Source: Escherichia coli (GTDB taxonomy: Bacteria; Pseudomonadota; Gammaproteobacteria; Enterobacterales; Enterobacteriaceae). Taken from it: a DNA stretch of 597 nt. Made by a program: the position numbers and the translations under genes. Where the stretch lies: NCBI RefSeq assembly GCF_003334255.1, contig NZ_QOWU01000216.1; one strand, 5' to 3'. The notes below the pieces were generated by a model that saw only the letters and a list, made by a program, of their open reading frames with translations, searched no databases and had not been told where the DNA came from. Every line of letters begins with the position of its first letter. Within the stretch, counting starts at the first letter, position 1. Shown piece by piece: positions 1 to 448 of this stretch.

Positions 1-21
1 AATTGTAAACCAGAATGCCAG

Positions 22-48
22 GAAAAAACAAAACCCGCCGAAGCGGGT
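22..48 (-). terminator. Rho-independent terminator of the hok mRNA
   Basis: Minus-strand reading is ACCCGC-TTCG-GCGGGT followed directly by TTTTGTTTTTT: a 6-bp GC-rich stem (33-38 pairing 43-48), a UUCG tetraloop and a U-tract. It sits 69 nt downstream of the hok stop. There is no T-run on the plus-strand side, so it looks unidirectional. Confidence 0.85.
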
Positions 49-49
49 T

Positions 50-68
50 AAGTGCGGGTGCGTTGAGG
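50..68 (-). promoter_or_regulatory. 3' fold-back (fbi-like) element of the hok mRNA, complementary to the 5' leader element at 431-448
   Basis: Plus-strand 50-68 AAGTGCGGGTGCGTTGAGG versus the reverse complement of 431-448, GACTGCGGGTGCTTGAGG: an 8-nt plus 6-nt perfect match separated by one extra G, with one further mismatch at the edge. In the mRNA this lets the extreme 5' end pair with the region just upstream of the terminator, as the tac/fbi interaction does in R1 hok mRNA (established knowledge; the assignment here is inference). Confidence 0.5.
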
Positions 69-117
69 ATGCCTGACACATCAGAGGTGGCGAGGGATTT
101 CTCCCCCGCCAGGTCTC

Positions 118-273
118 TTACTCCTCAGGTTCGTAAGCTGTGAAGACAGCGACCTCCGTCTGGCCGGTTCGGATTCGTACCTCGCAGAGGTCTTTCCTCG
201 TTACCAGTGCCGTCACTATGACGGTTAAACAGATGACGATCAGGGCGATTAACATCGCCTTTTGCTGCTTCAT
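118..273 (-). CDS. hokD: Hok/Gef family type I toxin (small membrane-depolarising peptide), HokD/RelF-like, 51 aa
   Basis: Minus-strand ORF from ATG (complement of 271-273) to TAA (complement of 118-120), 156 nt. Translation: MKQQKAMLIALIVICLTVIVTALVTRKDLCEVRIRTGQTEVAVFTAYEPEE. It has a single hydrophobic transmembrane segment and a conserved Cys-containing TRKDLCEV core, as in Hok/Gef proteins. It matches my memory of E. coli HokD (RelF) and is close to, but distinct from, HokC (Gef). Paralogue naming is from recollection and the context differs from K-12 hokD. An AGGAG Shine-Dalgarno lies 9 nt upstream. Confidence 0.93.
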   Translation of the reverse strand: MKQQKAMLIALIVICLTVIVTALVTRKDLCEVRIRTGQTEVAVFTAYEPEE

Positions 274-329
274 AGCCTGCTTCTCCTTGACCTTTCGGTC
301 CGTAAGAGGCTAATCTCTATGTGTCGCAT
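270..329 (-). CDS. mok-like leader ORF (19 codons), translationally coupled to hok through an ATGA start/stop overlap
   Basis: Minus-strand ATG (complement of 327-329) is preceded by GAGG with an 8-nt spacer. Translation: MRHIEISLLRTERSRRSRL, ending in a TGA (complement of 270-272) that overlaps the hok ATG. It starts 56 nt upstream of hok, at the position where mok starts in hok/sok loci, but in the +1 frame. The frame in phase with hok is closed by a TAG 13 codons upstream of the hok ATG. Whether the peptide is made is untested. Confidence 0.45.
   Translation of the reverse strand: MRHIEISLLRTERSRRSRL
283..287 (-). promoter_or_regulatory. Shine-Dalgarno sequence of hok (AGGAG)
   Basis: Minus-strand AAGGAGAAGCAGGCT-ATG; AGGAG with a 9-nt spacer to the hok ATG. 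Confidence 0.7.
287..316 (+). promoter_or_regulatory. Candidate sigma70 promoter for the Sok-like antisense RNA
   Basis: Plus-strand TTGACC (287-292), 18-bp spacer, TAATCT (311-316); predicted start near 322-324. The -35 overlaps the hok Shine-Dalgarno on the opposite strand. The -10 matches consensus only at T1, A2 and T6, so this rests largely on position. Confidence 0.45.
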
Positions 330-380
330 AGATATGGCCTCAGATTAATGTTAAGCGTCTTGCAGGACGCGTAATGTTAA
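322..380 (+). ncRNA. sok: Sok-like antisense RNA antitoxin (type I), boundaries approximate
   Basis: A plus-strand transcript from about 322 would be exactly antisense to the Shine-Dalgarno and AUG of the mok-like ORF (complement of 327-341). It ends in a stem-loop, GCGTC-TTGCAG-GACGC (355-370), extendable to an imperfect stem over 345-380. Size (about 55-65 nt) and position relative to the mok start fit known Sok RNAs. The 3' end is uncertain (378 to about 392) because no clean U-tract follows the stem. Confidence 0.5.
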
Positions 381-393
381 CTGGGGCTTTTCT

Positions 394-430
394 CTATCTG
401 CCTTTTGGTGTTCATGCCTGAGACAGATAG
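394..430 (-). repeat. Inverted repeat (hairpin) in the hok mRNA 5' leader
   Basis: Plus-strand CTATCTG (394-400) and CAGATAG (424-430) are perfect reverse complements, extendable to about 10 bp with one G-U pair, with a 17-nt loop. It lies immediately 3' of the leader element at 431-448 in the mRNA and may belong to the leader's regulatory fold. Confidence 0.4.
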
Positions 431-448
431 CCTCAAGCACCCGCAGTC
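431..448 (-). promoter_or_regulatory. 5' leader (tac-like) element of the hok mRNA, complementary to the 3' element at 50-68
   Basis: See the feature at 50-68. It sits directly downstream of the predicted -10, that is, at the extreme 5' end of the predicted transcript. Confidence 0.5.

Follow-up and report, generated by a model that had tools for sequence, protein, structure and literature searches.

The window, the whole 597-base stretch of DNA that we analyzed, is 100% identical to part of the chromosome of Escherichia coli 4/0. Its surroundings in that genome are those of a lambdoid prophage, with the replication genes on one side and the RusA/antiterminator (Q) region on the other. For this locus RefSeq records hokD alone, and the antitoxin RNA is unannotated. 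A match to the window at some level is present in 4,956 of the 5,426 complete E. coli genomes, and the number of matching places in a genome has a median of two and a maximum of ten. The window allele itself is common (428 records at an identity of at least 99%).

The hok toxin gene is encoded on the minus strand (118-273), and its 51-aa product is identical to HokD/RelF (RefSeq WP_000813254.1). The product matches the NCBIfam Hok family with E = 5.7e-13, but below the curated cut-off. From the sequence, the hok ATG is at 273..271, and the Shine-Dalgarno AAGGAG (288..283; plus-strand complement CTCCTT) is 9 nt upstream of it. A full-length hok mRNA of about 415 nt (28-442, minus strand) is delimited by a leader match to Rfam family RF01794, by a terminator, and by pairing between the RNA ends. 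Specifically, a consensus scan placed an intrinsic terminator at 49..32 on the minus strand, and in the minimum-free-energy fold of the 415-nt RNA (442..28) the 5' end (442..431) pairs with 68..56. Pairing between the 5' and 3' ends (tac/fbi) is a known feature of the R1 hok mRNA. Given the HokD open reading frame, the leader match, the terminator, and the end pairing, the window carries a complete hok mRNA unit. In K-12, the homology of hokD to the window ends at 287, the first base of the Sok -35 element described below, and everything beyond is lost.

A mok-like leader open reading frame of 19 codons (MRHIEISLLRTERSRRSRL) runs from 329 to 270 on the minus strand. Its UGA stop overlaps the hok AUG (cUAUGAag), and its Shine-Dalgarno, GAGG, is at 341..338. 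Based on the Rfam alignment and the folds of 17 variants, the Sok-target hairpin of the hok mRNA spans 306-341 (minus strand). It is closed by pairing of the mok Shine-Dalgarno sequence GAGGC with GCCUC, and its loop (CGACA) complements the extreme 5' end of Sok (GUCG).

Anatomy of the plus-strand Sok unit

A Sok candidate (323-397, plus strand) opposes the leader of this Hok/Gef-family toxin mRNA. Its putative -35 element, TTGACC (287-292), agrees with the consensus at five of six positions and has the same layout in R1-type, sokB, and sokC loci. The 18-bp spacer (293-310) contains the palindrome GACCTTTCGGTC and the family-invariant GTAAGAGGC; the palindrome corresponds to a small hairpin in the hok mRNA and covaries across loci (GCCTTTCGGC, GCGCAAAGCGC, and GACCGAAGGTC). 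The putative -10 element, TAATCT (311-316, of the form TANNNT), was assigned by homology to the 'pro-less' site of sokW and agrees with the consensus at just three of six positions. Across diverse loci, TANNNT directly follows GGC in 27 of 31. A simple consensus scan of the plus strand of the window reported neither a sigma-70 site nor a terminator; its criteria exclude -10 hexamers with three of six matches and long bulged hairpins, so this blank is uninformative. Given the three-of-six -10 element and the blank scan, the promoter call rests on homology and not on the consensus match. Judged by its sequence, the window keeps the conserved Sok register of CTCCTTG, 11-12 nt, GTAAGAGGC, TANNNT, 6 nt, and a purine. 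By analogy with the known genes, we predict sigma-70 promoter activity for the window allele.

The -35 element overlaps the complement of the hok Shine-Dalgarno, as a sequence-only reading of the window had pointed out, albeit by only 2 bp (287-288). Among loci picked by their Hok protein alone, CTCCTTG is kept in 73 of 75 intact ones. By comparison of the loci the overlap is a fixed feature of the family, and no peculiarity of the window.

The predicted Sok RNA is about 75 nt long (323-397), with its 5' end (G323) and 3' end (about 392-397) assigned by homology. After the -10 element TAATCT the window reads CTATGT and then G323. The curated sokC of K-12, with 59 nt (GUUCAGCAUAUAGGAGGCCUCGGG...CUCGGGGCUUUUCUCUAU), aligns at its start and end with window positions 323 and 397. 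The sequence upstream of sokC, CTCCTTGACCTTACGGTCAGTAAGAGGCACTCTACATGT, and window 283-322 align base for base, and on this basis the Sok start was placed at G323. The start near 322 that had been proposed from the sequence thus agrees to within 1 nt with the one predicted from the register of curated sokC and R1 Sok. At the other end, sokC terminates in GGGGCTTTTCTCTAT, 15 nt that recur unchanged at window 383-397.

The RNA is predicted to begin with a 13-nt 5' tail (GUCGCAUAGAUAU, 323-335), which the folds and the R1 precedent suggest is the target-recognition element. The 53-nt terminal hairpin that follows (336-388) would form the stem of an intrinsic terminator. Its base, GGCCUCAG/CUGGGGCU, is G+C rich, and its middle stem joins UUAAUGUUA (345-353) to UAAUGUUAA (372-380) through seven Watson-Crick and two G-U pairs. 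At the tip is a G+C-rich stem-loop, GCGUCU UGCA GGACGC (355-370); these 16 nt are an insertion with respect to the Rfam consensus and are confined to the prophage hokD/hokW clade. A compensatory change from G-C to A-U was found in this stem-loop at one locus (L201). Directly after the stem base lies the U/C-rich 3' tail UUUUCUCUAU (388-397), with six U in the 8 nt after C387. Fold energies are -7.1 kcal/mol for the tip (355-370), -13.3 kcal/mol for 345-380, and -28.2 kcal/mol for the whole hairpin, and folding of 322-392, 322-397, or 318-400 always gave one long hairpin at 336-388 tipped by 355-370. As modeled, the RNA has the architecture of Sok, in which a short unpaired 5' tail leads into one stable terminal stem-loop and then into a U/C-rich 3' tail, all within 55-75 nt.

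These features suggest how the unit may operate. A sigma-70 promoter (-35 at 287-292, -10 at 311-316) would fire at G323, and the transcript would fold into a short free 5' tail and one long hairpin (336-388). The G+C-rich base of the hairpin, together with UUUUCUCU, would act as an intrinsic terminator and yield an RNA of about 70-75 nt. The region 323-397 is perfectly antisense to the hok mRNA (397..323). As had been noted beforehand, the predicted RNA covers the mok-like Shine-Dalgarno (GAGG, 341..338) and AUG (329..327); the Shine-Dalgarno (288..283) and start codon (273..271) of hok fall outside it. The 5' end of Sok would nucleate pairing in the loop of the target hairpin (341..306), and pairing with the hok leader from 397 to 323 would mask the Shine-Dalgarno and AUG of mok and leave those of hok free. 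The duplex would block translation of mok, on which translation of hok depends, and would be expected to be cut by RNase III. Tail-loop recognition, the block of mok, and RNase III cleavage are carried over from work on R1 and sokW (PMC1635323, PMC9841398, PMC8621323). From the same work, Sok would be short-lived and would have to be made continuously.

Correspondence with R1 Sok, the K-12 genes, and sokW

The founding member of the family, hok/sok of plasmid R1 (parB), is a plasmid-stabilization module, whereas the window is a prophage locus. R1 Sok is 64 nt long, with an 11-nt single-stranded 5' tail that recognizes the hok mRNA loop and one stable stem-loop, and primers give its ends as GACUAGACAUAGGG... 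and ...GGGGCUAUCUUCUU (PMC1635323). As in the window, the single-stranded 5' tail and the one stable stem-loop are accompanied by a pyrimidine-rich tail, and the RNA is antisense to the translation start of mok and spares that of hok. The promoter is also laid out alike, with a -35 element that overlaps the complement of the hok Shine-Dalgarno and a TANNNT -10 element directly after GTAAGAGGC. R1-type loci read CTCCTTGCGC, 11 nt, GTAAGAGGC, TATCCT, GATGTG, and then G, which is the register of the window. The R1 tail, UAUCUUCUU, is less U-rich than that of the window, R1 Hok is only 39% identical to the window toxin, and R1 mok is a 70-aa overlapping open reading frame.

The RefSeq SokC gene of K-12 has the -35 element TTGACC and the GACCTT-CGGTC spacer palindrome (one loop base differs), followed by GTAAGAGGC, as in the window. 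It also shares the register of the start, the hairpin base GGCCUC/GGGGC, and the 20 nt after the hairpin. At 59 nt it is shorter, having neither the apical stem-loop of 16 nt nor the middle stem formed by UUAAUGUUA, and its tail differs in sequence from that of the window. SokC, SokB, and SokE are chromosomal loci disrupted by IS elements in K-12, in contrast to the prophage locus of the window. A literature search for Term-seq or transcription-start data for sokB and sokC returned nothing usable.

The closest studied relative is encoded by Sakai prophage 5 (Sp5, an Stx2 phage) of E. coli O157:H7, where hokW-sokW forms a type I toxin-antitoxin pair (PMC8621323, Takada et al. 2021). The sokW antitoxin has been demonstrated experimentally and depends in part on RNase III and Hfq, and its 'pro-less' mutation, TAACCTA to GAGCCGG, unmasks HokW toxicity (PMC8621323). 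We located the published sokW oligonucleotides first in an Sp5-type phage (L002) and transferred their positions from there to the window. The site of the 'pro-less' mutation corresponds to window 311-317, the fragment that gives functional sokW in trans to 270-424, and the northern probe that detects sokW RNA to the complement of plus-strand 323-350. The sokW locus is about 91% identical to the window and has the same lambdoid-prophage position, promoter layout, 53-nt G+C-tipped hairpin, and GGGGCUUUUCUCUAU tail. Compared with TTGCCT and TAACCT in sokW, the -35 and -10 elements of the window (TTGACC and TAATCT) each have one more match to the consensus, and the spacer has 18 bp rather than the 17 bp of sokW. 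The 5' tail of the window, GUCGCAUAGAUAU, is 2 nt shorter than that of sokW, GUUCAGCAUGGAUUG. Because of this 2-nt difference, mok is a 19-codon open reading frame ending at the hok AUG in the window, versus an in-frame 70-aa extended Hok in hokW. Unlike the hokW locus, the window carries the HokD sequence.

From these comparisons, the layout from the -35 element to the cover of mok is standard and conserved in R1, K-12 sokB and sokC, Sp5 sokW, and about 30 loci of other genera. By analogy with these genes, the window allele would be expected to have an active promoter, the ends assigned above, intrinsic termination, and antitoxin activity.

Structure and strand of Sok across the family

Three sets of loci were used to examine the structure of the family: 80 phage loci with identical HokD; about 30 diverse loci from Citrobacter, Klebsiella, Photorhabdus, Pantoea, Enterobacter, Cedecea, and other genera; and the curated K-12 sok genes. 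The diverse loci came from a DNA-motif scan of species-representative genomes, filtered for an adjoining Hok-like open reading frame; before the filter, about three quarters of the motif matches were chance matches in unrelated phyla. A blastn search of plasmids with the window recovered only P1-like phage-plasmids that carry hokD and did not reach R1. R1-type loci were obtained by tblastn with the Hok protein, and two of them (L093 and L101) were used. A third R1-type locus (L007), in which IS150 is inserted inside the Sok hairpin, was excluded.

All 36 distinct Sok sequences fold in the same way, with a single hairpin built on GCCUC/GGGGC between a short 5' tail and a pyrimidine-rich tail. 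RNAalifold gave 14 consensus pairs, of which 7 show compensatory double changes, and the covariation score was 0.422 versus 0.209 for the shuffle control. Paired cells reached 94.5%, compared with 82.8% after column shuffling (0 of 500 shuffles reached the observed value) and 36-58% when the partners were slid by 1-3 columns. On the hok strand the same cells were paired in only 72.8%, a gap accounted for by about 110 G-U cells. The hairpin was stabler on the Sok strand in 36 of 36 sequences, with means of -19.5 versus -10.6 kcal/mol. A covariance model built from 30 sequences, with every G+C-tipped hairpin and hence the whole clade of the window left out, found the window on the plus strand only (321-397, 33.6 bits, E = 2.8e-6). 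The same clade-free model recovered sokW at L002 577-653 and a 64-nt RNA at an R1-type locus. SokC, SokB, and SokE were all recovered by one model, and for sokE, which was outside the training set, the annotated coordinates were returned exactly.

The Sok-type antisense gene that had been proposed for the plus strand is borne out by its sequence anatomy, by its exact-register homology to curated and studied Sok genes, and by the strand-specific, covarying hairpin. Overall, we regard the unit as very probably an ordinary, apparently intact prophage Sok-type antitoxin gene, with a normal long hairpin and U-rich tail.

One alternative is that the window encodes no functional antitoxin, with plus-strand signals that simply mirror a conserved hok leader and a promoter of little or no activity, like those of decayed chromosomal hok loci. 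The weak -10 element and the blank plus-strand scan would fit such decay, as would the K-12 hokD locus, which lacks everything beyond window 287. Some chromosomal hok/sok loci have also been described as inactive in post-segregational killing, in reports cited by a recent survey of the family (10.1101/2025.08.07.668861). The leader is strongly constrained on the hok strand, and the structure of the overlapping hok mRNA could account for much of the conservation on the Sok strand. A mirror image, however, would not give 94.5% versus 72.8% pairing, nor a hairpin stabler on the Sok strand in all 36 sequences. TANNNT is moreover kept at a fixed distance, and the window -35 and -10 elements are each one base nearer the consensus than those of the experimentally supported sokW promoter. 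An intact hok gene and leader without an antitoxin should be lethal, yet the allele is present in the 428 records at an identity of at least 99%. We consider the absence of an antitoxin unlikely.

The 3' end was the feature that had seemed anomalous. In the sequence-only reading, the RNA ended in a small stem-loop followed by an atypical tract, so that both its end and the manner of termination were unclear. The stem-loop (355-370) and the GTAATGTT that follows it (371-378) are literally present; the stem-loop itself is no more than the tip of the 336-388 hairpin. The GUAAUGUU found after the small stem pairs with 345-353 and forms the 3' side of the middle stem. The real base of the long hairpin is followed by UUUUCUCUAU, the commonest tail in the family, which disposes of the atypical terminator. 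Nor is the 3' end obscure: the annotated end of sokC aligns with window 397, and the same 20 nt, GGGGCTTTTCTCTATCTGCC, follow both hairpins.

An antisense RNA could still be imagined that ends just past the small stem-loop (at about 371-378), or through a Rho-dependent or processing event, as a unit with an unusual terminator. The small hairpin does exist with GUAAUGUU after it, and the scanner reported no canonical terminator on the plus strand. RNA cut at 378, however, folds no better than shuffled sequences (z = -0.34; 68 of 200 shuffles as good), compared with z = -4.6 to -5.5 for RNAs extending to 392-400 (0 of 200 as good), and GUAAUGUU is paired with 345-353 inside the covarying hairpin. 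The apical hairpin is absent from most family members and cannot be the terminator of the family, in which a U-rich tail after the true stem base is the norm. In the first eight nucleotides, family tails average 5.5 U and 7.6 pyrimidines, and the window tail, TTTTCTCTAT, is the commonest (9 of 36). Curated sokC terminates at the homologous UUUUCUCUAU. An untranslated RNA of about 75 nt also offers little room for Rho loading. Such an early or irregular end thus seems very improbable. For the long hairpin, the G+C-rich base GGCCUCAG/CUGGGGCU and the adjoining UUUUCUCU, a U-tract that is interrupted, make up a predicted intrinsic terminator, and the stem base, the U-rich tract, and the little room for Rho together point to intrinsic termination of Sok.

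A search with the Rfam Sok family had been suggested as a check. RF01794 ('sok antitoxin (CssrC)') did match the locus (271-442, 106.7 bits, E = 2.9e-25), but on the minus strand, so the match is no evidence on the orientation or boundaries of Sok. This was its only above-threshold match; the plus-strand match (383-565, 14.2 bits, E = 1.1) was weak and lay elsewhere than Sok. The model is 157 nt long and extends from the 5' end of the hok mRNA to the hok AUG. In K-12 it also matches the minus strand, that of hokC and hokB, whereas curated sokC (L005 553-611) and sokB (L006 520-576) are on the plus strand. Given the same strand inversion at both curated genes, RF01794 is a mislabeled model of the hok mRNA leader, which identifies the locus and is silent on the strand and ends of Sok. 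The failed plus-strand search reflects this mislabeling and not the absence of Sok from the window. Taken at face value, the 106.7-bit match would place Sok itself on the minus strand at 271-442, a reading to which we give practically no credence, refuted as it is by the K-12 matches lying opposite to curated sokC and sokB, by the extent of the model, which starts where the hok mRNA starts and stops at the hok AUG, and by the independent Sok-strand covariance model, which finds the plus strand only. Antitoxin annotation with the Rfam 'sok' model would give the wrong strand and the wrong extent.

A hypervariable 5' end and shifting mok frames

Among the loci with identical HokD, a sharply bounded hypervariable block (317-337), with near-invariant flanks, covers the 5' recognition end of Sok. 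Entropy in the block is 0.65 bit per column, compared with 0.05 in the hairpin, 0.07-0.12 in the promoter elements, and 0.044 at hok third-codon positions, which the block exceeds about 15 times. Use of hok synonymous sites as a neutral baseline that would prove positive selection was dropped, as these sites are constrained by mRNA folding. The variable part corresponds to the loop of the target hairpin and to mok codons two and three, that is, to the Sok 5' end, and the fold is retained in each of 17 distinct target hairpins. Tail types include GUCGCAU in the window and GUUCAGCAU in sokW, and two loci (L012 and L014) have further types.

Where two copies occur within one genome, 62 of 63 pairs have different tails (Photorhabdus tandem arrays included), and in pairs with 99% identical hairpins the tails are only 73% identical. 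This divergence, seen in sequence comparison, is suggestive of selection for distinct specificities. Non-identity of tails as a sign of avoidance was rejected as an argument: with the allele frequencies of the phage sample, identical tails would be expected in only about 13% of random pairs, and the informative pairs are few and give no statistical power. We tentatively propose, at somewhat less than even odds, that the first 5-14 nt of Sok and the matching target loop form an 'address' that differs between copies and keeps co-resident prophage modules orthogonal, with the mok frame drifting as a by-product. If so, the protection given by each Sok would be limited to its own hok. The authors of the recent family survey explicitly did not analyze the Sok and mok elements (10.1101/2025.08.07.668861).

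The frame of mok also differs between near-identical loci, as indels in the 317-337 block shift the mok start among all three frames. In 54 loci mok is in frame with hok and predicts a 70-aa extended Hok, as in hokW. In 17 loci and the window it is a 19-codon open reading frame whose UGA overlaps the hok AUG, and in 3 loci it is in the classical overlapping frame. Mutagenesis of R1 indicated that mok translation is needed up to the hok Shine-Dalgarno but not past the hok start codon, and the variable mok frames agree with this result (PMC9841398). The survey of relatives confirms, from natural variants, that translation of mok does not have to run beyond the hok start codon.

The unit in the window belongs to a known and studied kind of gene, an unannotated Sok next to the annotated hokD of a prophage allele that is common in E. 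coli, and its supposed anomaly is removed. The plus-strand interval 323-397 can be used to annotate Sok where RefSeq has hokD alone. The mislabeled Rfam model and the observations on specificity and on the mok frame are worth a note. For E. coli genomes with two to ten copies of hok, the survey gives a testable handle on the specificity of their antitoxins.

Annotation of the hok/sok locus

The Rfam family RF01794, labelled 'sok antitoxin', is a model of the hok mRNA 5' leader, 157 nt long with the hok AUG at its end. Rfam search placed this family on the minus strand of the window at 271-442, and at 502-654 and 467-618 in the two K-12 loci with curated sokC (L005) and sokB (L006), where the matches lie on the strand opposite to the curated RNAs. 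Annotation pipelines based on RF01794 will assign 'Sok' to the wrong strand and overestimate its length by about 100 nt.

The 3' end of the hok mRNA, including the terminator and the fbi region that pairs with the mRNA 5' end, coincides with a match to isrK (window 28-109, minus strand; 27.2 bits, E = 0.0007) that falls below the gathering score of 50 for this family. The match may stem from structure near the terminator that both RNAs share, or from a remote relationship to a Salmonella prophage sRNA. Across the same terminator and fbi region, RefSeq annotates a plus-strand ORF (window 1-76; 5897-6076 in locus L001) as a 'hypothetical protein' of 59 aa, and the same ORF is named 'mobile element protein' in phage records. 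This ORF overlies the structured 3' end of an RNA and is probably a spurious call.

Enterobacterial R1-type hok/sok loci were also identified in assemblies of unrelated organisms, specifically a Streptomyces morookaense contig (L115) and an Oscillibacter MAG contig (L143), and a hokD-type locus with 95% identity occurs in an Actinobacillus phage record (nucleotide match H31). Contamination or wrong host assignment most likely accounts for all three.

Leader, promoter, and their loss

The Sok promoter spacer contains a small palindrome, GACCTTTCGGTC (window 293-304), located between the -35 element and GTAAGAGGC. This palindrome covaries throughout the family, with the forms GCCTTTCGGC, GCGCAAAGCGC, GACCGAAGGTC, and CCGGATGGCGG. 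Presumably it corresponds to a hairpin in the hok mRNA immediately upstream of the hok Shine-Dalgarno, and the sequence of the Sok spacer would therefore be set by the opposite strand.

We compared the mok-like leader ORF (window 329..270, minus strand) across 80 phage loci encoding identical HokD (L011-L090). All three frames relative to hok are represented inside this single near-identical clade, which includes the window. The ORF is in frame with hok in 54 loci, giving a 70-aa fusion; in the window and 17 loci it spans 19 codons, with its UGA overlapping the hok AUG, and in 3 loci it is an overlapping ORF of 68 aa.

Homology between the window and the K-12-type hokD found downstream of relBE (nucleotide matches H22 and H23) stops at 287, where the Sok -35 begins. 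In this K-12-type lineage hok and its Shine-Dalgarno survive, but the mok leader and Sok have been lost. Comparable replacements upstream of CTCCT were detected in 6 of the 80 phage loci. The short Sok-hairpin/mok region appears to be hit repeatedly by insertions, because IS150 sequence interrupts the Sok hairpin of an R1-type plasmid locus (L007), the same IS150-end sequence occurs in a phage locus (L058), and IS150 adjoins the mokA pseudogene of K-12 hokA (L092).

A hypervariable block at the Sok 5' tail

A block with sharp boundaries (window 317-337) comprises the Sok 5' tail, the hok-mRNA target loop, and mok codons 1-4. Among loci encoding identical HokD, entropy per column is ~0.65 bit in this block, whereas the flanking hairpin has 0.05 and the third codon positions of hok have 0.044. 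The fold of the target hairpin is kept in all 17 variants of the block.

Tandem arrays of hok/sok modules were identified at six loci (L118, L096, L138, L144, L151, and L204), including six copies within 11 kb in Photorhabdus thracensis (L118). Within arrays, promoters and hairpins are near-identical and the Sok 5' tails are unlike; the sole difference between the two copies at L204 is the Sok tail (TGTTGGGTTCATG versus TGTGTTGTTCATG). More broadly, the block differs in 62 of 63 within-genome pairs. It may serve as a specificity 'address'.
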